Shown piece after piece: positions 14,701 through 54,201 of a stretch of DNA of 64,000 bases (the first letter of the stretch is position 1; the number at the start of each line of letters is the position of its first letter). A program made the position numbers and the translations under genes. Origin of the DNA: Candidatus Doudnabacteria bacterium (GTDB lineage: Bacteria; Patescibacteriota; Doudnabacteria; UBA920); NCBI GenBank assembly GCA_963837465.1, contig CAWINB010000004.1, positions 74,853-138,852 of the forward strand, read 5' to 3'. Below the pieces are notes generated by a model, which was given only the letters and a program-made list of their open reading frames with translations, made no database searches and was not told the origin of the DNA.

Positions 14701-15206
14701 AAAGTAATTAAACAAGCCCTCTTTGGGGGTTTCATCAATAATATCAATATTTTTAGATAAAACACGGAAGTCCTTTATGGAATATTTTATGTTCTCTATC
14801 TTCCCGAAATCATGGATTGAGGACACAAAACATTCCCTTTTTACACGCATCCCGCTATTTTTTAATAATTGATGGGTTTTGGAAAAAAATTTACTTTATT
14901 TAAAAGCATAAATATTTTTCCAGCCAACGCAAAAAAATTTGCGGGGAACGCAAAAAGGGCCGATCCACAAAGGCTTATAGGCTTACAACATTGTGCATAT
15001 TTTGATTATACTCGTCAACCAAAACTTGTCAAGTCCCGATTCTACCGGAACAAAATCCTTAAAACCCGATATCTTTATACATCCATACTACCACACTTAC
15101 CCACAAACCTCAAACAGTTAATCCACAGGGGAATAAAAGATGGCTCTGATATTTTTTGGTTACTTTAAAATAAAGGCAATACCTTCTTTTAGTGGTGCTT
15201 ATTATT

Positions 15207-15430
15207 TACAAACACATAGAGAATTTTATATATGGATTTGAGTATTTTTTATGTATAAATCATTCACGTATCTACAAAAGTAGAAATTTTATATATGGAT
15301 TTGAGTTTTAGATTCTTATAATATTATAACATATCTACAAAAGTAGAAATTTTATATATGGATTTGAGAGTTCCTGTACGGAAAGGACTGGAATATCTAC
15401 AAAAGTAGAAATTTTATATATGGATTTGAG
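15207..15430 (-). CRISPR. CRISPR array, leader-distal segment: degenerate terminal repeat (15207-15242) plus three intact 36-nt repeats (15270-15305, 15333-15368, 15395-15430); spacers of 27, 27 and 26 nt
   Basis: Repeat on the transcribed (minus) strand is CTCAAATCCATATATAAAATTTCTACTTTTGTAGAT, the canonical Cas12a crRNA repeat 3' hairpin. Confidence 0.9.
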
Positions 15431-15443
15431 TGAACTGCTCTGA

Positions 15444-16403
15444 TTATACCGTACCACTTCGACCGTTTTTGATGAGAGGTTTTAGAGCGGTCTTGGTGTA
15501 GGCCATCGGCGGTTTGTAGCCGATGCTGCTGTGTAATCTTCTATAATTATAGTAGTTAATTTTCTTCTTTACAAACTTAATAACTTCGGTTAAATTGGTC
15601 AGCTCAGATATCTCGCTTTGCAGCTCAGTCTTAAACCTGCCAAAGAAAGATTCCTGTCCTGGATTGTCCGTTGGAGTGCCAGGCTTGGAAAAAGATATCT
15701 TGCCGTGTCCCAGTATCGCTTCCACATAACTGTAACCGGTATACTGACTGCCCCTGTCCTGATGCCAAATCATTTTCTTAAATAATCTTTTTAACAGTTT
15801 GGGACAAGGTGGGAGTCGGCTGATAGTTTTTAAAGCGCTGCAAAACGAATTTAAGACTAAAGTTTCTTCCATGTTGTCATCAATATCGTATCCGTAAACT
15901 GCTTCCCCTAAGTTGTCCTTATGTACACACAAGTAAGCTTTTCCGGTTTTGAACTTCAACTCCGTAATATCCGAAGTAACGGCCTGCAAGGGTTTGGTGA
16001 TATTAGCCTTTAAAAGTAAGTTGGCTTTATCTCCTAAAGCATTTAAAGTTTTTTGAATAAAAGTATCTTTATTCTTTTTAATATTTCTAGGTAGACTAAG
16101 GCCCCAAAGGTTGCTTAATTTAGCCACTTTATCTCGGCCAATAGTAATGCGCTTGTTATCGTTCAGCTCATAGTAAAGCCTTCTTATTCCATAACCAGAA
16201 TTATCTTTTATGACTTTGACAAAGACTGCTTTTAAATGTTTATGGGCAATTTCAAACTTTTGGGTTTTATCACAGGCGTGGTAGTAAGTGTCCTTACTGA
16301 TATTAAAGAGTTTACAGATTTGATTAATCCCAATTCCATCCTGGCCGGCAAACTTGCGACAGTATTCGGCGATGCAAAGCTTGCTTACCCCTGACTGTCT
16401 AAA
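15444..16403 (-). CDS. IS3-family transposase OrfB (integrase core), expressed as an OrfAB fusion by -1 frameshift at T TTT TTA (about 16398-16404); the track ORF 15444..16127 is the Met-initiated portion
   Basis: 'HQDRGSQYTGYSYVEAILGHGKISFSKPGTPTDNPGQESFFGRFKTE...YNYRRLHSSIGYKPP'. The -1 frame is open from the slippery heptamer into 'MAKLSNLWGL...'. Confidence 0.75.
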   Translation of the reverse strand, partial: FRQSGVSKLCIAEYCRKFAGQDGIGINQICKLFNISKDTYYHACDKTQKFEIAHKHLKAVFVKVIKDNSGYGIRRLYYELNDNKRITIGRDKVAKLSNLWGLSLPRNIKKNKDTFIQKTLNALGDKANLLLKANITKPLQAVTSDITELKFKTGKAYLCVHKDNLGEAVYGYDIDDNMEETLVLNSFCSALKTISRLPPCPKLLKRLFKKMIWHQDRGSQYTGYSYVEAILGHGKISFSKPGTPTDNPGQESFFGRFKTELQSEISELTNLTEVIKFVKKKINYYNYRRLHSSIGYKPPMAYTKTALKPLIKNGRSGTV

Positions 16404-16711
16404 AAATTTTTAAGTAAGTTAATTTCCACTTCCTTTTTTCCCAGTAAGGATTCCAGATCACGAATTTGTTGTTTTGCTTGCTCTGTAGTTTTATCTGCTT
16501 TGAGTTCAAAGATGCTGGGACCGTTGTCCAGGAAGTGCCTGCGCCAGGTGGAAATTTGGTTGGGAGCTAAGTTATGCTTCCTGGCCAGTGCTGTAACTTC
16601 CGATTGTTTAAAACTTTCCAGTACCAGGTTAAACTTAAATTGGGCTGAATGTTTAATCTTAGAATTTAATTTGCTGCTACGCTTGTAGACATATTTTTTT
16701 ACATAATTCAT
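16385..16711 (-). CDS. IS3-family transposase OrfA (HTH plus leucine zipper)
   Basis: 108 aa ending at the slippery site; typical OrfA arrangement upstream of OrfB. Confidence 0.75.
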   Translation of the reverse strand: MNYVKKYVYKRSSKLNSKIKHSAQFKFNLVLESFKQSEVTALARKHNLAPNQISTWRRHFLDNGPSIFELKADKTTEQAKQQIRDLESLLGKKEVEINLLKNFLDSQG

Positions 16712-16825
16712 AATGGTTTTAGCAGGGTTACAATTAATTGTATTTTACCCTCTAAAACCTCTCATGCATAGTGGTACGGGAAAGCCAGGACAGATCAGAG
16801 GATTACTACTGGCGCCGGGACTTTG

Positions 16826-17049
16826 ATCTACAAAAGTAGAAATTTTATATATGGATTTGAGTTTTATGGAACGGCGTACAAGCACAGATCTACAAAAGTA
16901 GAAATTTTATATATGGATTTGAGGGGGAATAACCAAGTCGCCGCATTCCATCTACAAAAGTAGAAATTTTATATATGGATTTGAGTATATTCTTTGTGGA
17001 AGATGTGGGCTACATCTACAAAAGTAGAAATTTTATATATGGATTTGAG
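16826..17049 (-). CRISPR. CRISPR array, leader-proximal segment: four intact 36-nt repeats (16826-16861, 16888-16923, 16950-16985, 17014-17049); spacers of 25 (IS-adjacent), 26, 26 and 28 nt
   Basis: Repeats identical to those of the distal segment. Leader 17050-17211 lies between the array and cas2. Confidence 0.9.
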
Positions 17050-17063
17050 TCCGAATTGTTTTA

Positions 17064-17121
17064 GTTTAAGCCAAAAAGAATGCAAATAACAAATAAATTG
17101 TTACGACTTTTTGGCTTAAAC
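17064..17121. repeat. perfect 15-bp inverted repeat in the CRISPR leader (GTTTAAGCCAAAAAG ... CTTTTTGGCTTAAAC, 28-nt spacer)
   Basis: Exact reverse-complement arms at 17064-17078 and 17107-17121. Confidence 0.6.
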
Positions 17122-17211
17122 ATAAGTGGCCAAAAAATAAAGACCAAGGTTTTCAAATCTATATTTAAACTTATACCTTTAGGTATTTTGTTTAATTTTT
17201 AAGGTACATTT

Positions 17212-17493
17212 TTATTTAAAGACTAACACATCTTTCTCTTCGTTAGCCGAATAGCCATAACGAATGACTTTTTTTTGACAGACCAGACAAACTGGAAAAA
17301 TAACAATACTATCGCTATTGGTAAACTGCTTTTTATATACCAATTCTATCTCTTTTAAAATGTTTGTCAATACGCGCGGGCTGTTCTTTATTTCAAAAAC
17401 CGAATACTGAATTCTGCGGCCAAATTTCTTTAAAAATTTGCTGAATTTTGTCCTGGTTTTGTCGTCGGCAAAATCGTAAGAAACTAAAATCAT
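17212..17493 (-). CDS. cas2: CRISPR-associated endoribonuclease Cas2
   Basis: 93 aa starting 'MILVSYDFADDKTRTKFSKFLKKFGRRIQYSVFE'; sits between cas1 and the array. Confidence 0.85.
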   Translation of the reverse strand: MILVSYDFADDKTRTKFSKFLKKFGRRIQYSVFEIKNSPRVLTNILKEIELVYKKQFTNSDSIVIFPVCLVCQKKVIRYGYSANEEKDVLVFK

Positions 17494-17494
17494 A

Positions 17495-18457
17495 TTATTG
17501 AACCTCTTTGTTTAAAATATTAAAGTCAGGAAACTCGCCGCCGCTATGCATAAGAGACCTGTAAAATTTTTGGGTGAATAAATATAAAGCCTCTTTATTG
17601 TCCATAATTGCTTCCATAAAAATTTTGCCGTACTTTTGGCTTTTTTGATAATCTAAAACATATCTTCTGCCTACAACAGAAAAATCTTTACTATCTATTT
17701 GCTTGAGGTTGTAGGATTTTATAAGTTGTTTTTCTATAATACAGCGAAATGGCTCAATGATATCGCAGGTTAGTGATTTCCGCTGGAAAAATAATTTATG
17801 ATAGACCCCTTTGTAGGTATCAAAGCCAAACAGCAATAAAAGCGAATCAATAAAGTTAAATAAAAAAGTATAGCCCATATCCAATAAAAAATTAGGGATA
17901 TCGGGTTTTACCCGCGGCATACGTCTAAGCCAGCCAATTTTCCCAAAATATTCTCCAAAAAATACTCGGCTAAAATTTCCTTCCAGTCCCAATAACTCTT
18001 CAGGATTTCTGGCATTAACGACCTGCGCTAAAAATTCTGCAATCCCAGCTTCAACGTTCAAATCCCTATCTAATAACCTAAACTGGTTTTCCATTTTATT
18101 TGCTACCAATTTTTTTGCCATCCTAAACTCTTTTTCCTCGGGCATAGTGTATTGCATTGACCTAAGCATATAATTTCCCTCTGCCCGCGCGTTAAGGGCG
18201 CCGTATAACCCAAAATTATTACCCAAAAAAAATAAGGAAACCGCCCGCTTGCGGCACTCTTTTACTAAACCAGAGGTAAAAGAAAAGTCCCCGATTACGA
18301 ATATAGCCAAAATGCGGTGGCACGAAGCCTGGTTTATAATTTTTCCCTCTTTTTCAAAAACCACGTTTTCATTTTTAAAGAACAACCGGTTTTTAGCTCC
18401 GTGTTCGGTCTGGACAAATAAAATCTGCTTGGCTTTTAAATCCGGCAAAGTTAGCAT
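17495..18457 (-). CDS. cas1: CRISPR-associated integrase Cas1
   Basis: 320 aa of typical Cas1 length and conservation, adjacent to cas2 and cas4. Confidence 0.85.
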   Translation of the reverse strand: MLTLPDLKAKQILFVQTEHGAKNRLFFKNENVVFEKEGKIINQASCHRILAIFVIGDFSFTSGLVKECRKRAVSLFFLGNNFGLYGALNARAEGNYMLRSMQYTMPEEKEFRMAKKLVANKMENQFRLLDRDLNVEAGIAEFLAQVVNARNPEELLGLEGNFSRVFFGEYFGKIGWLRRMPRVKPDIPNFLLDMGYTFLFNFIDSLLLLFGFDTYKGVYHKLFFQRKSLTCDIIEPFRCIIEKQLIKSYNLKQIDSKDFSVVGRRYVLDYQKSQKYGKIFMEAIMDNKEALYLFTQKFYRSLMHSGGEFPDFNILNKEVQ

Positions 18458-18460
18458 AAG

Positions 18461-19003
18461 TTAGTTCCAAGCTAATGGGCTGTAAATATTATTTTGACAA
18501 TGGGCGCATGAATGTTCGGTAATATCCTTGGGGCTGAAACTTCTCATTTTTTGCAACGTTTGTTCAAATTCTAAAATTTCCTCCGCGCTTGGCAAGCCAA
18601 CTTCATAACGTTTGTTATCGGAAAGGCTGTGTAAAAACATTTTTTCTACTTTATACCCCATTTCTTCCATACAAAACATTTCCGCGTAAAGCTGGTATTT
18701 GTAACCCAAATAAATGTTTTTAATTTTATTTTTGCGCTCTATTAAAGTTTTTCCGGTTTGGTCATATATATCGATCTTGCCAATCAAACCATACCTCTCG
18801 CAATATACATCTATCCCCTGAACAAATCGCTTAGCGCTGGAATAAGTCCCATCTTCTATATTTTCATGCACCAACTTCCCCGCCACCTGCGCAGTTTCGT
18901 GATATCCCCGCTGGTCAAAATTCTCATATATTGTATGCAGATATAAAGACAAAGGACAGTAAAGAAAGTCATTTATTTTGGAAATTTGTATGTAATTTTC
19001 CAT
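18461..19003 (-). CDS. cas4: CRISPR-associated Cas4 (RecB-like nuclease with Fe-S cysteines)
   Basis: 180 aa with an N-terminal 'YCP' and C-terminal 'CAHCQ' cysteines. Order is cas12a-cas4-cas1-cas2. Confidence 0.75.
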   Translation of the reverse strand: MENYIQISKINDFLYCPLSLYLHTIYENFDQRGYHETAQVAGKLVHENIEDGTYSSAKRFVQGIDVYCERYGLIGKIDIYDQTGKTLIERKNKIKNIYLGYKYQLYAEMFCMEEMGYKVEKMFLHSLSDNKRYEVGLPSAEEILEFEQTLQKMRSFSPKDITEHSCAHCQNNIYSPLAWN

Positions 19004-19010
19004 TTATTTT

Positions 19011-22000
19011 TTATTTCTGAACAAAGGAATCCCATTCTGATAAACTAACAAATAAGTCTTTATAAACCAATTTATCTGCGCCGCCTTTGGCCTTCGCGGC
19101 ATCTCTAATTTTATTAATCATATATAAACCTTTTCGAGCTATATTATAAGCTCCATTTGCGTCTCCGTTTATTATTGTTGCCAGACTAAGATTAGCATCT
19201 TTAGGATTACGGCTATCAAAACTGCAAACAGGGCATTGTATAAAATCATCATCCTTTTCAGAACTATTACGAATAGATAGCAATAGGCCAAAATAAAATA
19301 AAAAGTTTTTATAAAATTGCGCCGTCAAATTAGCATTAATTATCGCGTCTGTTATATCCCCTTTTCCACGCCAGTCAATCTTGGATTCGTCAAATAATTC
19401 AATAAACCTTTCTGTAATTTGATAGCTATTAGTAATATAACGCTTTTCTCCATTTTCAATTCTAGGGCTAGTCTTATAGCGAATAACGTCTGAATATAAA
19501 GTCCATTCGTTTTTCCCTGATGGTTTTTCATTACTGAAGTCAGCAATCTTATAAGTAAAAGCGAGCCTATTATTTTTTACCTCGTACTGGATCCGTAAAT
19601 TTTGGATTAACTCTTTTGATTTTTCAACATTTTCGAAAACAGTCTTTAGCCGCGCATCTTTACGGAAACCACAGTTTGGGCAGGTGGTAGAAGTATAAGC
19701 TGGGGCCGTATAGAATATCACACCCGTTTGTCCGGAAAGATTCTGAACACTTTGTATTGGAGAAGTTAGCTGAAAAGCTTTTAAAGGATGACCGAATTCA
19801 CCCTCTTGAGCGTGTTTAAGTACCAAAAAATTCAACTTTTTTACCAATGCCAATTCTAACTTTTGATAAACCTGTTTTTCTATTTTTGTTCTCCCGCGTT
19901 TAAACTTACTATTCAAATCCTCAAATATCACAATAGCATTATACTTTATAACTAAATCGCATAACTTTTTAACGGCGTGGGAAGCATAACCTTCTTTGAG
20001 TTCTTTGATATTTGCTATGGCCTGCCAGTCTAACCGAGCTTGTTTCCGTTGTTTTTCTCTTTCGTCTAATTTTTGGTGATAAGAAATACCATTAACTACA
20101 TTTAGACTCTGATGCTCATTTTCAATAATATTACCCTCGCCATCCAATATACAATAATAACCCAAGTGTTTTTCACCTCGGTCTATACCAATAATATTAA
20201 TCTTATTTTGTACCAACTCCTTATTAACTGCTATGTTAAAATTTTTAGGTGTAATAGCGCCACTATTTGCGTTTAATGATATGGGTAGATGAAGTAATAT
20301 TTTATCTTCCGTGTATCTTTTGTTCCCTATAACATCAATTTTAGTTTTCCTTTCTTTATCAACAACAGACTTAAGTGATTTTGGCCGGAAAAAAACTTCA
20401 GCTCCACCACTTAATTTAAAGACCAAATCGTTCAAATTTTGTTTATCAAATAAAAGTTTGAAGTATGTGGTATGCAGGTTTTCCTTACCGGATGATTTTT
20501 TAGCAAAATCCTTTGAATAAATCTCAAACAAATATAAATGTTTATCTGCCGTTTCTTTAGTTTTTTTATTTGTTCTAATATATACCCCCTGCTCTACATA
20601 AACTTGACTAACCTGTTCAAAATCAAGTTCGTAAGTATTAACCAATTCCAAATCAGCCAGTAAGTCCTTGGTGGCGACATATGTTTTACTAACAAGACTT
20701 TGCAACTCTGGGAACTTTGATATTTTAGTCAGCAGAATTTTGTTAATCCTTTCCAACAATTTTTTCTCAGACATAAGCTTCTTGTCGTCTTTGAAAGTTG
20801 AGCCAAACATGCCTTTATAACTACTTCCAAAAAGACTTGTGGTTTTGAGCTGCTTGTAGACCATTTTTTCATATCGTGCTCCTTTTTCAAATGCAGTAAA
20901 AGCTTCTGGATACTTCTGCCTTTCAAATAATCCTGGGTCATCAGAAATTCCCAGAAAGAACTTTTTATGCTTTTTGAAAATAAAACCACAAAATTGAGCC
21001 GCGCCGGCATCATTTTCAGACCAGCCATCTAATAAATTCCCTTTATCAAAATTCAACTTAACCTTTCTGGTCAAAAATATTTTTTTTGTCAAAAAATTAC
21101 GTAAAGCATCATAATATTTAAAGGCTGCCCAATTATGGTATATATCATTAAATGAATTATAAAAATTGCTTTCAATTTTTATATCTGCAATTTTCTTCTT
21201 CCCTTTTTCTAAAGCTAAATATTTTACCATACGGTATAAGCTTAAAACCGCTTCGGCATAATGCTTTACAATTTCCAAAGACTGTGGGGTTTTATTCCAC
21301 TTTTGTTTCAATAATAACCCAAGCTCTTTATTTGCTTCTTGATAAATCTTTAATAGTTGATAAAATTCACTGAGCCAAATGTTGTAAAAATTATGCAAAT
21401 GACTTTGCGTGGAATCGATTGTCTTAGTTTTAATATATTCTTCCTTAAAAAGATCTTCGTTTTTTATATAGCGTAATGTTTCCAGTGCATTGCTAATTTC
21501 CATAAAACTAACAAAATCCGGTAAATTATCTTTTATATCTTTTTTCTTTTTTTCTTCATTAACAATATTTATAACGGCTTGTTTAAAAATTTCACCATTT
21601 TTAAACCATTTATAGCTTATTGTATTAAAAGCTTGTCCGTTTACATAAATTCCCGATAAATCAAAAGGGGCTTTATCTATGAGCAACGATTTAAATAATT
21701 TTTCAATTTCTGGGATAACTTCATTATTTTCTCTTTCAAATTCGTTTAGTGTGTCTAATAAATTATCATCGTCTTCAATAATTAATCTACCAACTTCTTG
21801 GGCAGATTTCTCGCTTAGAATCTGCTTATACAAAGCCTGAAATAATGGCAATTTTTCTTCTTTGTGTTTCTGCCTATATTCATTAATTTTTTGATTCAAG
21901 CCCTTAGCTCCAACGCCGCCAGCTTCCTTATCTGCGCCAATTATTTTATTATAGACATCAATACCAGATTGCAAAAAACAGTTATTATAATAATCCAAAT

Positions 22001-22718
22001 TAAATATTTTTAAATCCTCCTCGCTAAATGCCAGATCGCCTTGTAGCTGACCTTTATAATATTTATCAAACAGCTCCTTATTTTTGGAAAAAATGGTTAA
22101 GTTTTCATCTATAATACGATTAGCAATTGCCGTATCTTCAGCGCCATCGCTATACAAATTTTCTCTGCTTTGACGAAAATTTCCCAAAGAAGTTGCAAAT
22201 TTTTTAAAAGAATCGATCAAAGCTACCGCTTCTTTATTTTTAATCTCTTGAGACTTTAAGATATCCAAAATTTCCTTTTTGAACAGAAATTTAAAGTCCG
22301 TCGAATTTTCAGCAAATTTTACACCATCGGCCGTATATTTTTCTCTCCACTTATCACCAGCGATTTTAAAATATTCAACAACCTCTCTACGTAGATTCTC
22401 TTTTTCTTTACTAAACGGATTCACTTTACCTTTTAACCCAGTTAAATTGCTACTAGTAAACAGCTCATAAAATTCCTTAAAATCCATTTCAGGGGCCATC
22501 AAGGCATCTATTACAAAACGACGATGTACTTCGTCCAAATATGGTTTTATTTTTTTATAATTTTCCGCTACTAATTTATCTTTTTCAATTATCCGGTTTT
22601 CCACCAACATTTTTAAAGTGTTTCCAACCGGCTTCAACTCAAACCTTAAAGTCTTGGAAAGGGCGTATTTTCCAGTAAATTGTTCAAAAATAGACTTTTC
22701 CTTAATTGTGTTTGGCAT
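19011..22718 (-). CDS. cas12a: Cas12a (Cpf1) type V-A effector nuclease
   Basis: 1235 aa with N-terminal 'YALSKTLRFELKPVGNTL'. RuvC-I 'IGIDRGEKHLGYYCIL', RuvC-II '...VIFEDLNSKFKRGR', RuvC-III 'DANGAYNIARKGL'. Adjacent cas4-cas1-cas2 and a Cas12a-type repeat. Confidence 0.9.
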   Translation of the reverse strand: MPNTIKEKSIFEQFTGKYALSKTLRFELKPVGNTLKMLVENRIIEKDKLVAENYKKIKPYLDEVHRRFVIDALMAPEMDFKEFYELFTSSNLTGLKGKVNPFSKEKENLRREVVEYFKIAGDKWREKYTADGVKFAENSTDFKFLFKKEILDILKSQEIKNKEAVALIDSFKKFATSLGNFRQSRENLYSDGAEDTAIANRIIDENLTIFSKNKELFDKYYKGQLQGDLAFSEEDLKIFNLDYYNNCFLQSGIDVYNKIIGADKEAGGVGAKGLNQKINEYRQKHKEEKLPLFQALYKQILSEKSAQEVGRLIIEDDDNLLDTLNEFERENNEVIPEIEKLFKSLLIDKAPFDLSGIYVNGQAFNTISYKWFKNGEIFKQAVINIVNEEKKKKDIKDNLPDFVSFMEISNALETLRYIKNEDLFKEEYIKTKTIDSTQSHLHNFYNIWLSEFYQLLKIYQEANKELGLLLKQKWNKTPQSLEIVKHYAEAVLSLYRMVKYLALEKGKKKIADIKIESNFYNSFNDIYHNWAAFKYYDALRNFLTKKIFLTRKVKLNFDKGNLLDGWSENDAGAAQFCGFIFKKHKKFFLGISDDPGLFERQKYPEAFTAFEKGARYEKMVYKQLKTTSLFGSSYKGMFGSTFKDDKKLMSEKKLLERINKILLTKISKFPELQSLVSKTYVATKDLLADLELVNTYELDFEQVSQVYVEQGVYIRTNKKTKETADKHLYLFEIYSKDFAKKSSGKENLHTTYFKLLFDKQNLNDLVFKLSGGAEVFFRPKSLKSVVDKERKTKIDVIGNKRYTEDKILLHLPISLNANSGAITPKNFNIAVNKELVQNKINIIGIDRGEKHLGYYCILDGEGNIIENEHQSLNVVNGISYHQKLDEREKQRKQARLDWQAIANIKELKEGYASHAVKKLCDLVIKYNAIVIFEDLNSKFKRGRTKIEKQVYQKLELALVKKLNFLVLKHAQEGEFGHPLKAFQLTSPIQSVQNLSGQTGVIFYTAPAYTSTTCPNCGFRKDARLKTVFENVEKSKELIQNLRIQYEVKNNRLAFTYKIADFSNEKPSGKNEWTLYSDVIRYKTSPRIENGEKRYITNSYQITERFIELFDESKIDWRGKGDITDAIINANLTAQFYKNFLFYFGLLLSIRNSSEKDDDFIQCPVCSFDSRNPKDANLSLATIINGDANGAYNIARKGLYMINKIRDAAKAKGGADKLVYKDLFVSLSEWDSFVQK

Positions 22719-47740: not shown

Positions 47741-48379
47741 TTATATTTCAAAGCTTTCCAATTGTTTTTTAATGCCTGCCACAGACTGCTCTGTAATATC
47801 TTCGGGGTTGATGGAACAACGTTCAAAAATCTGTCGTTCCATTTGCCGCATAGCGTTTTCAAAATTATCCCGCGCTTCTGAACTATCTTTATGATGCTTG
47901 TAACGCGCGCGCAAATCGGCCAACCTTTGCTCCAAACTGACCACGCCATGCGGCCCTACGCGGTCATCGCAATACTCCACAATTTTTTTGCCAAAATCCG
48001 CGCCGGCGGCGTTTGCCGGAGCGCCCAAAAAACTTACAGAGTCTATTAATTCCAAAACCCTGGCGCTTACCCCCAGCTCCCCGGCAATTTGTAAATGCGC
48101 CTGATGTTCGTTATTGCCGTATTTAGCCCGATACTCATCCTGAACTTTTTGCCAATAGCCAATATCAATATTAAAATTCAGCAAATTTTTTGTAACCCCA
48201 AGGTCAAACTTAATAATGTTACCCATATCGTGCAGCAGGCAGGCTTTAATAATATTGCCGTCGTCGACTTGGCCGCTAAAATTTTGGCAGATTATTTTCG
48301 CCACGGCCGCCACCCTAAGCTGATGCTGGGCCAACTGCGGCATAATTTTATATTTTTTATAGATTTCTAAAATATTCAT
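47741..48379 (-). CDS. HD-domain phosphohydrolase
   Basis: 'ACLLHDMGNIIKF' HD motif. Confidence 0.6.
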   Translation of the reverse strand: MNILEIYKKYKIMPQLAQHQLRVAAVAKIICQNFSGQVDDGNIIKACLLHDMGNIIKFDLGVTKNLLNFNIDIGYWQKVQDEYRAKYGNNEHQAHLQIAGELGVSARVLELIDSVSFLGAPANAAGADFGKKIVEYCDDRVGPHGVVSLEQRLADLRARYKHHKDSSEARDNFENAMRQMERQIFERCSINPEDITEQSVAGIKKQLESFEI

Positions 48380-48531: not shown

Positions 48532-49071
48532 CTAAAAAAACCCTTCCATAATCTCAATAATTCTTTTTAGCGTGGCGTTTTTGATTCTTGTCGTTTCAAT
48601 AACTGTCTTCGTAAAAAGTTTCTCGCACTTAATTTGGGTTAGCGTCTTGTCTCCATTTAGATAATTTTTTTGAAAACGCTTCTTTAGGGCGGCAGACATA
48701 TCATTGGCGTGATTTGCCGATGGTTCTAAAATTGACAATAGCAAACATTCCAAACAGGGTGTATTTTCCACTACTTCAATATTTCTATTGGAAGCTTCTT
48801 CTCTGGCCACAGCCATTTCTCCTTCGCTTTTATCATTATCCAGGATAACAACTCTCTTATCAAAGGCAGAAAAATCGTTACCCGCATCTACAACAATGTC
48901 TCTGGCGCTGCCGCCTTTACCCCTTCTTACGGTCACGGCAACATTTTTGCCATAGGCAAATAAGCTTTTAAGATGCCTTAAAAAGATTTCTTCATTAAGA
49001 CCTTCCCCATAAACCAAAATTGTCCTGTTTGCCGAGCGCGGTTTTTTCTTATATGGATCCGTTCGTGACAT
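48532..49071 (-). CDS. small TOPRIM-like protein (RloB/DUF4276-like) paired with the upstream ATPase
   Basis: 'TILVYGEGLNEEIF' (conserved Glu) and 'VVILDNDKSEGE' (DxD) are TOPRIM-type motifs; 19 nt downstream of the ATPase gene. Confidence 0.5.
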   Translation of the reverse strand: MSRTDPYKKKPRSANRTILVYGEGLNEEIFLRHLKSLFAYGKNVAVTVRRGKGGSARDIVVDAGNDFSAFDKRVVILDNDKSEGEMAVAREEASNRNIEVVENTPCLECLLLSILEPSANHANDMSAALKKRFQKNYLNGDKTLTQIKCEKLFTKTVIETTRIKNATLKRIIEIMEGFF

Positions 49072-49089
49072 TTTGTTTTACTGTTACTT

Positions 49090-50304
49090 TTAAAGCTTTG
49101 GAACGGCACCATAGGCTCCGGCCATATATTTAGCGTAGTAGTTATCATCCGCCCGTACGCCACTAACCTCATCCAAACGCCAAGATTCACTTTCATTACT
49201 TTGGTTTTTTTCTACGAATACTAACTGATATTTATCCAATTTACTTAAAATTATATGGCTATGAGTGCTAAATAAAAGCTGGGCATTCTTAGGGTTGGTT
49301 TCCGGCTGGATAAATAGATCAAAAAGCGAAAGTAATATCTCAGGATGCAGACTGGAGTCCATTTCATCAAACACGGCAATTCCTCCTTTATCCAATACTT
49401 GTAAAATACTTTTTAAAAGAACAAATAACTGTTTAGTTCCTGAAGACTCATAAATAATCGGAAGGGCTTGTTCTTGGCCATTGTATGAGTGAATGCCCGT
49501 GATGTTTATTTGAAAACCATTCCCGGATGGCTTTTTGTCTATATTAATACCCGCCAATCCAAGATCAAAACGAGATAAAAGCTTTTCTGCTTTTTCTTTC
49601 AAAGCCTTATTATCGTTATAAAAAACCAAAGCATCAAACCATTGAGGCATTGCGTTATTCAACATTGGATCTCCCATCCAACCAGTCTCACTGGCATTCG
49701 TCTCTAGTCCCTGCCAAAATTCTGCGATCTCCTGGCTTTCCTTATGGTTTAAACGGGCCGCTGCCGAAATAACGCTAGCATTTTTACGCAATAAATTTAA
49801 ATTTTCAAAACCTTTAGGCAAGCCGAAGCCCTCGCCGTCAAAAGTATAAGCTGCTGATTGAGGGTTCCATGTTCGGACAAATAACGTTTTGGTCCCCATT
49901 TTTTCTTTTGCCATACTTGTGAGTTTTAACTCTTCCAAAAAAATCTTGGTTTTGTCTAAAATAAAGCTATACGTATAAATTTTTTTATCAACTTCAAACA
50001 CAACAGAAAGCTCTGTTTGCTGATCTTTCTTCTCTCCAAAAGCAAACGATTGTACTGCAATAGGAAATTCTGGCGGCATTGTAAACGAAGTAACAATAAG
50101 CCATTTAAAAAATGGTAAAACTTTAAGCAAGTTAGTTTTGCCTGAGGCATTAGAACCTATTATCGTTTCTACTTTTGAAAGCCGGGTGCCGGAAGGGGCT
50201 ACAAAATATCCATAATTTTCCGGAGCATTGTCGTTCACGACAAAATCAAGGGTTGTCAAGTCCCCAAAAGAATAAAAATTCTTGCAAGAAAAAGAATGGA
50301 TCAT
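49090..50304 (-). CDS. AAA/ABC-type ATPase of the OLD/RloA/AriA class (AAA_21-like)
   Basis: Walker A 'GSNASGKTNLLKV' near the N-terminus and a Walker B/D-loop region 'GIAVFDEMDSSLHP'. Confidence 0.6.
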   Translation of the reverse strand: MIHSFSCKNFYSFGDLTTLDFVVNDNAPENYGYFVAPSGTRLSKVETIIGSNASGKTNLLKVLPFFKWLIVTSFTMPPEFPIAVQSFAFGEKKDQQTELSVVFEVDKKIYTYSFILDKTKIFLEELKLTSMAKEKMGTKTLFVRTWNPQSAAYTFDGEGFGLPKGFENLNLLRKNASVISAAARLNHKESQEIAEFWQGLETNASETGWMGDPMLNNAMPQWFDALVFYNDNKALKEKAEKLLSRFDLGLAGINIDKKPSGNGFQINITGIHSYNGQEQALPIIYESSGTKQLFVLLKSILQVLDKGGIAVFDEMDSSLHPEILLSLFDLFIQPETNPKNAQLLFSTHSHIILSKLDKYQLVFVEKNQSNESESWRLDEVSGVRADDNYYAKYMAGAYGAVPKL

Positions 50305-50398
50305 AATTGTTCTTTCTTAGTTTATTGTTTAATGTAAGACCAGTTTAGCATGTATTAAGTAAATTTGCAAGTATTTATACAAAAATTTGTATAAAATA

Positions 50399-50427
50399 CC
50401 AAAAAATGCCTCTTTTTAGGCATTTTT
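50399..50427 (-). terminator. terminator hairpin AATGCCT-cttttt-AGGCATT flanked by A/T runs (downstream of the type IIG fragments)
   Basis: Perfect 7-bp stem with a T-run on the minus strand. Confidence 0.5.
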
Positions 50428-50527: not shown

Positions 50528-53389
50528 CTATTTTACTTCAATAATCTTGATTTCCTCATCCGTCAAACCATATAGCTTATAAATTTCCTGGTCGATTTTT
50601 TTGTCAGTTTTGACGATTTCATCTTTGAGCTTTTGCCAATCATTGGAGTTTGCTTGAGTTTTTACTAATGAATGATTGAGTTCAACTATTTTGTCTACCA
50701 AAACGGCAACTTGCTTTTGTTCTGTAGCGCTGGGAACGTAAATAGGAATATTAAGAATCGGTTCTTTGTCGATTTGAAGCATATCACCTTGCATTTTGCC
50801 TTTTCCTCGAAGCCAAAAATAGTTTAGCTTTGAATTTAAAAGCCCAGTTAGGTATTTTAGATTGGAGCGATTTGTACTTATGACAAAATAGGTCTGTGAT
50901 ACAAAACAGGGAAAGTCAACATAAGAAAACCTTGGGATATCGGTTTTGCGTATTGAAAAAACGCTAGGTCCGAGAAATAATTTCTCCTCACGGGCTCAAT
51001 GCAAACCATAAGGTCCAAATGATGAGGTGATAACACTTTTGTATCTGCTAAGATGTTTTTTTATTTCAGGATAACTATCAATTTTTTTTGCAACTTTACT
51101 ATCTGTATAAATTATCCAAAAACTATTTTTGGGGTTAATGTTGTAACGATTTATTTGCTCTGAAGTATAAAAGGGTCTTATAAGCTTTCTCTCTTCTGGG
51201 GATAATTTTAGACTACTAAGCTCATCATTAGATAAAACAAATATCCCTTCCCCTAATACGGCCCCGTGAATTAATGAAAGATGGGGACGAATTACAGACT
51301 CCTGGGGAGCCACAATACCTTGGCCAACTTCTTTATCGGTGAGTTCAAAATTTTTTTTACTTTCTAATTTATCAAAAATTGAGCCGAATTCTTCGTTCGC
51401 AAAAGTAATATTTTTACCAATTAATTTTTGGGGTTCAATTTCGATTTTCTTTTTAGCTGACAAAATATCAGAAACCAATTTACCTTCATCAATATTTTTA
51501 TCTGTAATCCTTAAATATTCTATTGGGTATTTTTAGCGTGGCTCGCCTTTTTTAAAAACGTAAATCATTGTTTGAATGCCAGCATCTTCAAAAACTTTGT
51601 AATCTCCGAAGTCGATAAAAGTAATTAACTCACCTTCATTCAGAATTTTATCTCTAAAAATACTTGCTCCGGCATTAGTCACCCAGTTATTAGGGGCTAT
51701 AAAACTCATCGTGCTGTTATCTTTTAAAAGGTCAATTGACATACAGGCAAACATTGTCCAAATATCCATTTTGCCTTGATAGTAAGGGCTGCTATGTAAA
51801 CCATCAAATGCGCTTTTATTTACAAACTCTTTAATATATGGCGGGTTGCCGATTATACAATCAAAACCGCCCTGTTTAAAGACTTCCGGGAATTGGTCTT
51901 GCCAGTCAAAGGGTTTTTTGGAACGGAACTCGGAGCCGAAGTGTTTTTTTAGTTCTTCATCTGTACCAGAAATTAAGGAATTGCCATTTTTTATGTTATT
52001 ACCAAGATTGGGTAGTTTTATCTGTGAATCGCATACCGCCAAGAGTAGGTTTAAACGCGCAAGTTCAACGGCTTGTTCGTCTAAATCTACGCCATAAATA
52101 TTATTTATTAAAATTTGTACTTTTAAAAATGGCTCGTTCTTAGCCCCAAATTCTTCATATTTTTTTAGGATTTTTTCAAATGCGGCAATTAAAAAAGAAC
52201 CGCTTCCGCAGGCTGGATCTAGGACTTTTATTTTTTGCAAATCATTTATGCTTTTGCACTTATCCAAGACCGGACAGAGAGCATTTTGGACTATATATTC
52301 CACAACAAACCTGGGGGTATAATAAATGCCGTGTTCTTTGCGTTTTCTTTTATCTTTGGCCAGGTCTAAATCCTTGCCGAACAAAGTTTTTTTGGACTGT
52401 TCCAATTTATAGCCCAAATAGTTTTCGTAAACAGCGCCTAAAACATCGGCCGGAATGGCAGAAAAATCATATTCAAAATAGTCTTTATCTCCATACAAAA
52501 TTTCAATTGATTTTTCTGTAGCGCCGCTAAATTCTTCCCATTGCTCAAAAGGGTGAGGGGAGAATAGGTTAGAGTTATAAATATTGTCTAAATAGCGAAA
52601 TTTTTCTACCATGGCCTGATAAGGACTGCTTTGGCCTGATGTACCGCCGGCTTTCCATTGATTAATTAAAGGCCTAAGGGTTTGTGGCTCTATTTTTCTA
52701 TCCTCTGCGACGCGTATAAAAATTAAACGGTCAAGTAATTTTTGCACGCCCTCGTCAATTAAATATGGGGAAACTTTTTGGTTCCAACTTGTAAAGGCCT
52801 CTGTTAAAATCTTGCGGCTGTCGTTTAAATCTTTTGCTAATTTTTCAGTAACAGAAACCTTCTGGAGCTTCTTTCCGACTTTCTCGGCCTCTCTGTCCAA
52901 AACATCTTCAGTAAACGCTTGTTTGGACAACCACCATAATTCTTCAAAGCGAGTTAAATATTCCTGATATGTAAAAGATAGATACTTTTTACCTGCCAAA
53001 GATTTTTCCGGAGAAAGAGCGTTAAACACCATTAATCCTTCAAAATCGCTTAAGGCAGCCCAAGTAACACCCTTATTCCAAGAATAGCGTATGGCCTGCT
53101 TGGCATGATCTTCACGATATAAGTCCACCGAAAACTTTTTAGCTTCCAGATAAAATTTAATTCTGCCATTTAAATAAAAACCGTAATCAACTCTATCCTT
53201 ACTGATTTGCTCCTCGGCTGTTACTTCATTTCTTTGCAAAAAATCCCAGCCTAAAGCTGAAAATAAGGGCTCTATAAAACCCTTTTTTGTTTCTTCTTCA
53301 CTATATTTTGCCAATTTTCCGGCGACTTTTTCTGTCTGGTACTTTTCTACTAACTTAACTATCTGCTTTTTTGCGAGTTCTTTTTCCAT
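50528..53389 (-). pseudogene. type IIG/IIL (MmeI/Eco57I-like) restriction-modification enzyme split into three ORFs (53389-51533, 51478-50996, 50794-50528)
   Basis: N-terminal PD-ExK 'VDYGFYLNGRIKFYLEAKKF', gamma-class N6-adenine MTase motifs 'VLDPACGSGSFL' and 'IIGNPPY', TRD-like middle fragment, C-terminal '...LYGLTDEEIKIIE'. Total length is about that of MmeI. Confidence 0.6.
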
Positions 53390-53466: not shown

Positions 53467-53673
53467 TGTTTCTAAAACACAAAGCCCCGCGCCAGCATGA
53501 GCCTTACGGCTCCATGGCCTTTCGACCATGACCCAACGAAGAGTAGCTGAACACGGGGTTCAGTATTTTCGTTGGGTTTTTTCATGCCATGCCCGGGCCC
53601 TTGGGGGGCTGCGGGTTTAGGCATATTAAGTTGTTAGCCTTATTTTAGGGTAATTTTAGGTTTTTTACAAATT

Positions 53674-54201
53674 TTACCCCCTCTGCAGCCGGCTGTATTC
53701 TTCGTTGGCAACTTTGTCCGCGGCTCTGGCCCAAAAACTGCCGCGGCTGTGGTGGAAGTAGGAAACTTTGGCAAAACGCCTTTCCAGTTTTTTAATTTCG
53801 TCAAACAGCGGCTTAATACGCTCCGAGCGCAGGCAATAAATTCCATTGAGTTGCCCCACTACCACCTCGCTATCCATCCAAACCTCCACTTCCCTCCTGC
53901 AAAACCCCGGCGCGCGATCGAGCGCGAAAATAACGGCCGCGTATTCCGCCTGGTCAATTGTAACATCGCCTAAATATTTAGCTCTTTGCTCAACTACTTC
54001 ATCACGACCACCAACCATAACGTAGCCGCAAGCGGATTTGCCCCGCGCCTTATGCTGTGGAATATGCTGTCTGTTTTCCGGCACGCGGCAACAGGCATCG
54101 CAAATAATTTTTAAAAATGGATAGCAAAAATACGCTGCCAATTTCTCGCCAACGGCAATATCCTGCAAATAATAAAAACTGTTTAAGGTAAATTTGGGCA
54201 T
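53674..54201 (-). CDS. ribonuclease H-like (RNase HI/RVT-associated RNase H family) protein
   Basis: 'ACGYVMVGG...QAEYAAVIFALDRA...EVEVWMDSEVVVGQLNG...' carries the DEDD-type RNase H core. Confidence 0.6.
   Translation of the reverse strand: MPKFTLNSFYYLQDIAVGEKLAAYFCYPFLKIICDACCRVPENRQHIPQHKARGKSACGYVMVGGRDEVVEQRAKYLGDVTIDQAEYAAVIFALDRAPGFCRREVEVWMDSEVVVGQLNGIYCLRSERIKPLFDEIKKLERRFAKVSYFHHSRGSFWARAADKVANEEYSRLQRG

Follow-up and report, generated by a model that had tools for sequence, protein, structure and literature searches.

Among the described antiphage systems that join an ABC ATPase to a Toprim protein, the closest to the locus reported here are AbiL and RloAB. AbiL of L. lactis has been placed among the AAA15/21 ABC ATPase + TOPRIM systems (PMC11464382) and blocks the phage after transcription (PMC13064643); phage resistance by abortive infection is known for this prototype only. 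RloB, the partner of RloA in Campylobacter (Pfam PF13707), is a Toprim protein with a conserved Glu and a DxD motif (PMC12065111). The best-understood model is PARIS (AriA/AriB), in which the effector is sequestered by the ATPase, released upon a trigger and then cleaves tRNA; both AriB and P2 OLD are tRNases. The same two activities are combined in the OLD nucleases, including P2 Old, the class 2 OLD proteins of B. pseudomallei and X. campestris, and GajA of the Gabija system.

The locus described in this article lies in a stretch of 64,000 nucleotides from a Candidatus Doudnabacteria bacterium (contig CAWINB010000004.1), referred to below as the window, and all coordinates are positions in it. 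The locus consists of two genes and the elements that surround them:

49090..50304, minus strand: AbiLi-type ABC ATPase, 404 aa, ATG start, TAA stop, AAA_15/AAA_21 matches, predicted Rad50/SMC-head fold
49072..49089, minus strand: intergenic spacer of 18 nt between the ATPase and RloB-type genes
48532..49071, minus strand: predicted RloB/AbiLii-type Toprim nuclease partner, 179 aa, ATG start, TAG stop
50402..50427, minus strand: terminator-like hairpin (10-bp stem) with a T-rich tail, closing the upstream type IIG restriction-modification (R-M) gene
50342..50370, minus strand: putative promoter, TTGCAA, 17 nt, TGcTAAACT (extended -10), read by eye

The pair is an ordinary two-gene module of the AbiL/RloAB type, a known type of defence system. 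The spacer and the shared strand are consistent with a bicistronic operon in which the ATPase gene comes first. The original prediction, made from the sequence alone, had given the outer coordinates and the lengths of both open reading frames exactly, and the gap as 19 nt, which is one nucleotide too many; it did not state that both genes are on the minus strand. The hairpin probably marks the 5' limit of the module's own transcription unit. From the sequence we infer a promoter 38 nt 5' of the ATPase start codon, which agrees with the consensus at 8 of 12 positions and thus falls under the scan threshold, CPR promoters being poorly characterised.

The assignment of the ATPase to AbiLi is clear from profile searches. 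Its best PADLOC model is AbiLi PDLC02335 (E=6e-74, 247 bits), followed by the AriA family at 1e-26, and its Pfam matches are AAA_21 (2.2e-24) and AAA_15 (4e-14). PADLOC models of PtuA match the C-terminal half of the protein. The predicted structure (pTM 0.82) has Rad50, SMC and the Septu protein PtuA as its top folds (E 1e-10 to 4e-12), and on the basis of this model the protein is a Rad50/SMC/PtuA-like ABC ATPase of the defence type rather than a transporter ABC protein or, as the original prediction had named as a possible outcome against itself, a member of the housekeeping ABC proteins. Judging from the conserved motifs, the site for ATP binding and hydrolysis appears complete:

50134..50157, minus strand: Walker A / P-loop, G50-S-N-A-S-G-K-T57, invariant in the ATPase alignment
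49429..49452, minus strand: ABC signature region, Y285-E-S-S-G-T-K-Q292, with Y285, E286, S287, G289 and Q292 invariant (SSGT at aa 287-290)
49342..49374, minus strand: Walker B (D313, catalytic E314) and D-loop (D316...H320-P321), with D313, E314, D316, L319, H320 and P321 invariant (VFDEMDSSLHP at aa 311-321)
49255..49269, minus strand: H-loop, S346-T-H-S-H350, with the motif STHS at aa 346-349, from the ATPase alignment
49093..49158, minus strand: C-terminal tail, aa 383-404, conserved and predicted to be disordered

The last of these features combines a pLDDT below 50 over aa 383-404 with twelve invariant residues (R384, D386, N388, Y389, K392, Y393, A395, G396, Y398, G399, A400 and P402), and the tail is a candidate docking peptide.

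The 179-aa protein matches the Pfam family RloB with 33.5 bits against a gathering cutoff of 31.5 (E 6.3e-8), the match covering only positions 1-157 of the 195 in the profile, and 44 of its 46 relatives match RloB as well. PADLOC assigns it to AbiLii (PDLC02338, 9.6e-8; PDLC02337, 1.5e-4), so that both genes of the pair are called by the AbiL models, as the original prediction had proposed to check. The AF2 model (pLDDT 91.1) shows a core of four beta-alpha units (strands at aa 16-22, 44-50, 72-78 and 99-103) followed by helices. Strand 1 is followed by Glu23 and strand 3 by Asp78-x-Asp80, which is the Toprim arrangement; a small protein without such a fold had been the other outcome named against the original prediction. 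The best fold match in the PDB is the C-terminal Toprim region of OLD (6nk8_A, prob 0.97), with GajA also listed. By absolute standards these OLD Toprim matches are weak (E 2e-3, TM 0.37-0.44), and generic Rossmann-like folds score nearby. The best viral match is an RloB-like phage protein (E 2e-4, TM 0.61). Searches of PDB sequences with the ATPase, the 179-aa protein and the family profile gave no meaningful match to any solved structure. Residue conservation was evaluated on 131 representatives at no more than 50% identity (132 sequences in total) and singles out the following positions:

48991..49008, minus strand: Toprim Glu motif, G22-E23-G24...E27, directly after strand 1, with E23 at 100% and E/D27 at 98% of the 132 sequences
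48832..48840, minus strand: Toprim DxD motif, D78-N-D80, at the end of strand 3, with D78 at 100% and D80 at 95% of the 132 sequences
48748..48759, minus strand: P105-C106-L-E108 motif, where the first helix past strand 4 begins, with C106 at 96% and E/D108 at 100%
48682..48684, minus strand: near-invariant lysine K130 (98%), in the C-terminal helical region

The motifs that had been quoted for the two proteins are all present, namely GSNASGKT and the Walker B/D-loop in the ATPase, and VYGEGLNEE (aa 20-28) and ILDNDKSEGE (aa 76-85) in its partner. By analogy, E23, E/D27, D78, D80, C106, E/D108 and K130 look like the two-metal site of the B. pseudomallei OLD protein (BpOLD), formed by E400, E404, D455, D457, T506, E508 and K562. 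The distance of 55 residues from E23 to D78 equals that from E400 to D455 in BpOLD. The P105-C106-L-E108 motif, which corresponds in alignments to PCHE/ECFE in annotated RloB proteins, is a candidate set of metal-B ligands by comparison with T506/E508, and K130 is a candidate catalytic lysine by comparison with K562. The seven residues would cluster in space, judging from their positions relative to the secondary-structure elements. Taken with the model, the 179-aa protein is a predicted compact nuclease of the RloB family with a Toprim fold.

The small size of this protein had been taken to indicate a reduced variant, which the relatives contradict. A length of about 170-185 aa is normal for the subfamily, with copies on Proteobacterial plasmids and one phage included: among the best 150 of 1125 representative clusters nearly all proteins have 168-187 aa, and the partners that NCBI annotates as RloB have 170, 174, 185 and 221 aa in plasmid and phage copies. 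A truncated RloB was also considered and rejected, as the length is kept among relatives and the start codon is backed by the conserved N-terminus. The start of the small gene should be annotated at 49071 (179 aa) instead of the 161-aa call in one public copy, and the pair deserves the label of an AbiL-type system.

The same compact pair is found in more than 70 related species of Patescibacteria (CPR). The ATPase gene is located immediately 5' of the RloB-type gene in all 76 species-level loci with upstream DNA, with a gap of 4-39 nt and one overlap. A total of 2406 homologues of the ATPase were found, the top matches being 401-405 aa long and 62-71% identical, a level of identity that holds across CPR classes, and in 70 of 71 loci the ATPase is better conserved than the effector. 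The divergence of the ATPase and that of its partner are correlated (Spearman 0.52, p = 4e-6). The distribution of the pair is patchy and the flanking genes are different in nearly every genome. Among 135 immediate neighbours in 70 genomes, comprising 162 Pfam families, none was frequent and no third gene is conserved beside the pair. Outside the CPR, plasmids of Agrobacterium, Photobacterium and Clostridium carry the same cassette, its partner gene being annotated as RloB by NCBI, and the temperate Stenotrophomonas phage BUCT708 carries it as a moron. Chance can be ruled out as the source of the pair because of the matches to AbiLi, AbiLii and AAA_21, the RloB score above the cutoff and the recurrence in 76 of 76 loci.

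Comparison with the known systems places the pair on the AbiL/RloB branch of the class that the original prediction had outlined as PARIS/AbiL/RloAB. In AbiL of L. lactis, as annotated by PADLOC, the order is the same, the ATPase gene preceding that of the RloB-type Toprim protein in the same orientation, and both models match. The locus differs from AbiL in belonging to a distant, CPR-specific clade, whose ATPase shares no more than 30-32% identity with any homologue from plasmids or phages in the collections searched, and in the size of the ATPase, which is 404 aa here compared to the figure of 453 aa given for AbiLi in the superposition of a review. With annotated RloB proteins the 179-aa protein shares the E...DxD...(P)C-x-E motifs, whereas the pair is found here outside a type I hsd locus; some relatives do lie in R-M loci. 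The general class of a split ABC ATPase + Toprim-like module was borne out by the AbiLi/AbiLii and RloB matches, the predicted fold, the invariant Glu and DxD and the strict synteny, and the PARIS part of it was not: AriB is a DUF4276 protein of ~35 kDa, while the partner here is an RloB protein, no match of the pair to DUF4276/AriB was found at E<=0.01 in Pfam and PADLOC, and the AriA score of the ATPase (1e-26) is far below its AbiLi score (6e-74). OLD proteins carry on one polypeptide what is divided here between two, and the helical region that follows the Toprim core is shorter here. Gabija does not apply, the genes being separate and no GajB-like or UvrD-like helicase being conserved beside the pair. 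Septu shares the ATPase fold through PtuA and has an HNH nuclease as its effector rather than a Toprim protein, and for MADS (MAD3/MAD4) the matches are limited to 28.8 bits against a cutoff of 420 for NCBIfam antiphage_MADS3 and to 2.4e-8 for PADLOC mad3.

In the window the pair resides in a lower-GC islet together with a type IIG R-M gene, directly downstream of which it lies, and a RhuM-Fic protein (PDC-S23). The Fic, HD and type IIG R-M neighbours had been reported and are present, the decay of the R-M gene being due to two in-frame stops in a single 953-codon frame and not to a frameshift. A genetic code with TGA as a sense codon was considered as an explanation of this interruption and ruled out: TGA ends two of the 31 longest stop-free frames (>=250 codons), the standard bacterial code leaves these long frames intact, and the codon at this site is CGA in an independent assembly. 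The HD and Fic genes are not part of the module, since the HD-domain gene (47741-48379), tried as a third component, adjoins the pair in none of 78 related loci, and the RhuM-Fic gene, tried as a partner, is nearby in only four of the 78.

We consider it highly probable that the pair is a self-contained bicistronic defence module of the AbiL/RloAB class, with an abortive-infection or toxin-antitoxin-like mode of action. By analogy with PARIS and P2 OLD, oligomers of the ATPase would hold the nuclease inactive in the uninfected cell, a phage-derived cue would shift the state of the ATPase in an ATP-dependent manner, and the nuclease would then be released or activated and cut an essential nucleic acid, such that phage production would stop at the cost of the infected cell. 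We infer nuclease sequestration, trigger, substrate and defence phenotype in the CPR from such analogies. In E. coli the AbiLii protein of F. nucleatum is toxic, and sequestration as in PARIS is not established for the AbiL family because F. nucleatum AbiLi did not neutralise this toxicity in the one published test (PMC3985639). As to the target of the nuclease, we rank RNA above DNA, giving tRNA or another RNA about an even chance and regarding DNA as possible and less likely. The CPR clade could also be a mechanistically distinct, minimal subtype of AbiL, in which two conserved segments predicted to be disordered, the C-terminal tail of the ATPase and the basic N-terminus of the nuclease (aa 1-14), might latch the nuclease to the ATPase. 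In such a subtype the ATPase, which is unusually conserved, might respond to some conserved feature of host or phage that is particular to these ultrasmall episymbionts, and not to a phage protein that evolves fast; we regard this reading as unlikely.

Other readings of the pair start from its mobility and its company. It could be a pure addiction cassette with no real anti-phage role, the RloB nuclease being the toxin and the ATPase the antitoxin that together stabilise the carrier islet or mobile element. NetFlax pairs of AAA and TOPRIM_OLD proteins do behave as toxin-antitoxin systems, with AAA antitoxins neutralising TOPRIM_OLD toxins (PMC10440598), and the variable genomic contexts and the plasmid copies, including one on a Photobacterium plasmid of 5.3 kb with only four genes, would fit such a role. 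However, the prototype AbiL was isolated through its phage-resistance phenotype, one copy is the moron of a temperate phage and the local neighbours are defence genes, and we find the proposal improbable in its pure form, the two roles not being mutually exclusive. Less probable still is a role as an accessory of R-M ("restriction-linked ORF"), in which the pair would depend on the type IIG enzyme next to it and could, for example, detect anti-restriction proteins in the manner of PARIS or serve as a backup once the R-M system is disabled. RloAB was first described within type I R-M loci of Campylobacter, the pair here lies directly 3' of the type IIG gene, and among the relatives it follows a type I hsd locus in L004/L029 and is accompanied by methyltransferases or GmrSD in L001 and L002. 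Across the 70 genomes, however, only ~3-5 of the 135 immediate neighbours belong to R-M families, so that R-M adjacency is occasional and an obligate linkage was rejected for the clade; in addition, the terminator and the putative promoter divide the pair from an R-M gene that is itself interrupted by stops.

The Rad50 and SMC heads among the best folds of the ATPase model also bring to mind a housekeeping DNA-repair pair, such as RecF/RecR or Rad50 with a nuclease, and RecR is likewise a small Toprim protein of ~200 aa. Against this, no RecF, RecR or SbcC matches were found in Pfam and NCBIfam, the best models being specific to defence, and the model of the 179-aa protein lacks a zinc-finger or HhH region like that of RecR. 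A patchy spread, with plasmid and phage copies and variable flanks, also speaks against a housekeeping function, which we deem extremely improbable.

With the reading that we prefer, a self-contained defence module of the AbiL/RloAB class, the Patescibacteria gain a well-defined and widely spread clade of a defence type that is already known; these bacteria have tiny genomes and an immune repertoire that is only now being catalogued (PMC12259885). AbiL/RloAB systems are without a solved structure or an established mechanism, and a version with proteins of 404 and 179 aa and a fully conserved catalytic set would lend itself well to structural and biochemical studies of the control that ABC ATPases exert over Toprim effectors.

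The ATPase and the small RloB-type nuclease are encoded by two adjacent genes on the reverse strand. Both open reading frames had been placed at 48532-50304 from the sequence alone, and these outer coordinates are exact; all motifs quoted at that time are found in the two proteins, and the spacer, put at 19 nt, is in fact 18 nt long.

50427-50402: terminator-like hairpin ending the gene upstream of the ATPase
50370-50342: plausible promoter ahead of the ATPase start, TTGCAA-17-TGcTAAACT, read by eye
49090..50304, (-): ATPase gene, ORF of 404 aa; Walker A G50SNASGKT57, ABC signature S287SGT, Walker B/D-loop V311FDEMDSSLHP321, H-loop S346THS
49072-49089: spacer between the two genes, 18 nt
48532..49071, (-): small gene, ORF of 179 aa; motifs G22-E23-G24 and D78-N-D80

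The promoter, which we infer from its sequence, scores under the promoter-scan threshold. In the public NCBI/ENA copy of the small protein (P0001) the annotated product has 161 aa and lacks the N-terminus; because the dropped N-terminus is conserved family-wide, the start at 49071, which gives 179 aa, is to be preferred.

PADLOC assigns the ATPase to AbiLi (E=6e-74, with AriA as the runner-up family at 1e-26) and the small protein to AbiLii (9.6e-8), while in Pfam the ATPase matches AAA_21/AAA_15 and the small protein matches RloB (33.5 bits versus a cutoff of 31.5); the NCBIfam scan of both proteins yielded no family over cutoff. These assignments support the core of the original prediction, a two-gene module of an ATPase and a TOPRIM-like protein, and narrow the proposed PARIS/AbiL/RloAB class to its AbiL/RloB branch, PARIS being disfavored by the AriA score. 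AbiL has been grouped with PARIS, MADS and OLD as ABC-ATPase + TOPRIM systems (PMC11464382; bioRxiv 2026.07.10.737580), and RloB is related to OLD_TOPRIM, TOPRIM toxins being neutralised by AAA partners (PMC10440598). The pair is a new member, with a large CPR clade, of an already known kind of defence system, and PADLOC would call it automatically.

The suggestion that the small protein is unusually small, perhaps a reduced variant, does not hold. A profile run against 1.84 billion representative proteins returned 1125 clusters (595 at E<=1e-10), and the top 150, aligned end to end, are almost all 168-187 aa long, so its length is typical of its relatives and a reduced RloB is rejected. Close homologues of the small protein number over 120, are 175-180 aa long and come almost exclusively from Patescibacteria; ATPase homologues number in the thousands, the top matches having 401-405 aa and 62-71% identity. 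Plasmids of Agrobacterium, Photobacterium and Clostridium, as well as Stenotrophomonas phage vB_SmeS_BUCT708, encode distant ATPase homologues (27-32% identity); in each case the protein encoded next is annotated by NCBI as having an RloB domain (185, 170, 221 and 174 aa, respectively). Profile-sequence comparison gives homology to the small protein with 98.6% probability for the phage RloB (hhalign) and 91% for that of Agrobacterium, and in these comparisons the GEG, DxD and PC-x-E motifs are matched to one another. In this temperate phage (L087, 2609-4260) the cassette is compact, with an ATPase 32% identical and a 174-aa RloB carrying a PCLE motif; it runs antiparallel to the flanking phage genes and adjoins an MT-A70 methyltransferase, and this orientation and neighbour make it look like a defence moron.

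A sequence-level search for solved structures detected none for the module proteins. The small protein's AF2 model, for which 46 homologues served as input, is confident (pLDDT 91.1, pTM 0.85) and consists of four beta-alpha units (strands 16-22, 44-50, 72-78 and 99-103) followed by a helical region, with E23 right behind strand 1 and D78-x-D80 ending strand 3, which is the Glu/DxD placement by which Toprim is defined for RloB and DUF4276 (PMC12065111). In Foldseek searches of the PDB the top match is the C-terminal Toprim region of BpOLD, the class 2 OLD nuclease of B. pseudomallei (6nk8_A, prob 0.97, E 2e-3), and the matches include X. campestris OLD and GajA; all of them score weakly, with generic Rossmann-like folds close behind. 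The one significant match among predicted viral structures is an "RloB-like protein" (E 2e-4, TM 0.61). The strand order and the E23/DxD placement support the TOPRIM-like character originally proposed. The ATPase model (pLDDT 77.5, pTM 0.82) resembles the heads of Rad50 and SMC proteins and PtuA, the ATPase of Septu (E 4e-12 to 1e-10), which points to a defence/SMC-type ABC ATPase rather than a transporter.

Across 39 ATPase homologues no variation is seen in Walker A, the signature, Walker B D313/E314, the D-loop or the H-loop, and the ATPase is therefore predicted to be hydrolysis-competent. For the nuclease, we aligned 131 full-length representatives (pairwise identity <=50%) and compared conserved positions with BpOLD residue roles (PMC6755086).

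Conserved nuclease residues and candidate BpOLD equivalents
E23: 100% conserved; E400, metal A
E/D27: 98%; E404, metal B
D78: 100%; D455, metal A
D80: 95%; D457, metal A
C106: 96%; T506, metal B
E/D108: 100%; E508, metal B
K130: 98%; K562, catalytic lysine

G53 is 98% conserved as well. The Glu-to-DxD spacing in BpOLD, 55 residues, equals that of the small protein. The equivalences are candidates drawn from sequence pattern and secondary-structure position. Two conserved segments are predicted to be disordered, namely the C-terminal tail of the ATPase (aa 383-404, 49093-49158 (-), 12 invariant residues, pLDDT <50) and, in the nuclease, a basic tail at the N-terminus (aa 1-14, 49030-49071 (-), MSRTxPYKKKxRxA, pLDDT ~51). 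Both may act as docking peptides between the subunits.

A species-level scan with one genome per species gave 78 loci, two of them at contig ends without upstream DNA. The ATPase gene ends 4-39 nt upstream of the small gene in 76 of the 76 loci with upstream DNA, including one overlap, and the arrangement is identical in metagenome loci. Loci with a more diverged ATPase gene tend also to have a more diverged small gene (Spearman 0.52, p = 4e-6); in 70 of 71 loci the ATPase is the better conserved of the two. Copies resembling those of CPR (44-58% and 60-70% identity) lie on contigs binned as Gammaproteobacteria, Bdellovibrionales, Methanosarcinales, Bathyarchaeia and others (L022, L037, L040, L041, L062, L067, L069, L081), and this high identity points to CPR contigs placed in the wrong bin or to recent transfer.

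The surroundings of the pair are variable. In the window they comprise the following genes.

50528-53389, (-): type IIG R-M gene, single 953-codon frame
47741-48379, (-): HD-domain gene, intact, 212 aa
46532-47527, (-): RhuM + Fic/DOC fusion, 331 aa, matching PADLOC candidate defence family PDC-S23 end to end (E=1.5e-115)

The 135 immediate neighbours of the pair fall into 162 Pfam families, among which R-M subunits are the most frequent, yet with only 3-5 occurrences each. The downstream HD gene is conserved beside the pair in none of the related loci scanned, and RhuM/Fic is near it in only 4, one of these within a type I R-M locus; for these reasons we take the two genes alone as the functional unit. 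The same neighbour survey, together with the family scans, makes it very unlikely that the pair is an accessory dependent on R-M, and it also speaks against a RecF/RecR-like repair pair, a reading that is exceedingly improbable. A pure addiction module is unlikely, and this reading overlaps with the main defence model.

That model, which combines an ATPase as sensor and restrainer with a Toprim protein as the effector of abortive infection, is the best supported. The ATPase would sense infection and restrain the nuclease, presumably by sequestration that a trigger would relieve, and the Toprim effector would abort infection by acting on a presumed substrate, RNA being somewhat more likely than DNA as its target. 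In E. coli, AbiLii of F. nucleatum is toxic and its AbiLi gave no rescue (PMC3985639); AbiL of L. lactis acts at a stage later than phage transcription, by a mechanism that is still open (PMC13064643); tRNA is cleaved by AriB and P2 OLD (PMC11464382; bioRxiv 2026.07.10.737580).

Other features of the window were also recorded. The type IIG gene, previously described as degraded, has two stop codons in frame as its only interruptions (TAA, 51533-51535, codon 619; TGA, 50996-50998, codon 798) and is free of frameshifts. Where the window has this TGA, L005, an independent Logan assembly from the same organism, has CGA (Arg), and the stop is thus a recent or polymorphic nonsense mutation. In L005 (3183-3761) a 1-nt insertion in the HD gene (CATCAAGC versus CATCAGC) cuts the called product to 161 aa; the difference is due either to polymorphism between strains or to an error in assembly. 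A LOOT RNA is located between the type IIG gene's start and an RNase-H-like (RVT_3) gene (53674..54201), and a type V-A CRISPR-Cas locus (15205-22718, genes (-)) falls entirely within the low-GC stretch at 15-23 kb.

53499-53623, (-): LOOT RNA, Rfam RF03000, full-length model match, 65.6 bits versus gathering 46.4
19011..22718, (-): Cas12a/Cpf1 (RuvC_1 2.7e-76, REC1, Cpf1 REC2)
17495..18457, (-): Cas1
15205-15430 and 16824-17049: CRISPR array in two parts, eight repeats of ~36-38 nt, periodicity 62-64 nt
15444..16127: rve-family integrase, within a 1.4-kb insertion between the array parts

The repeat, in reverse complement, has the 3' end AATTTCTACTTTTGTAGAT. The array looks IS-interrupted, since the insertion with its integrase splits the repeats.

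The ATPase-nuclease pair is of value as a compact example from a defence family so far without structure or mechanism, and it adds to the defence repertoire of CPR bacteria.
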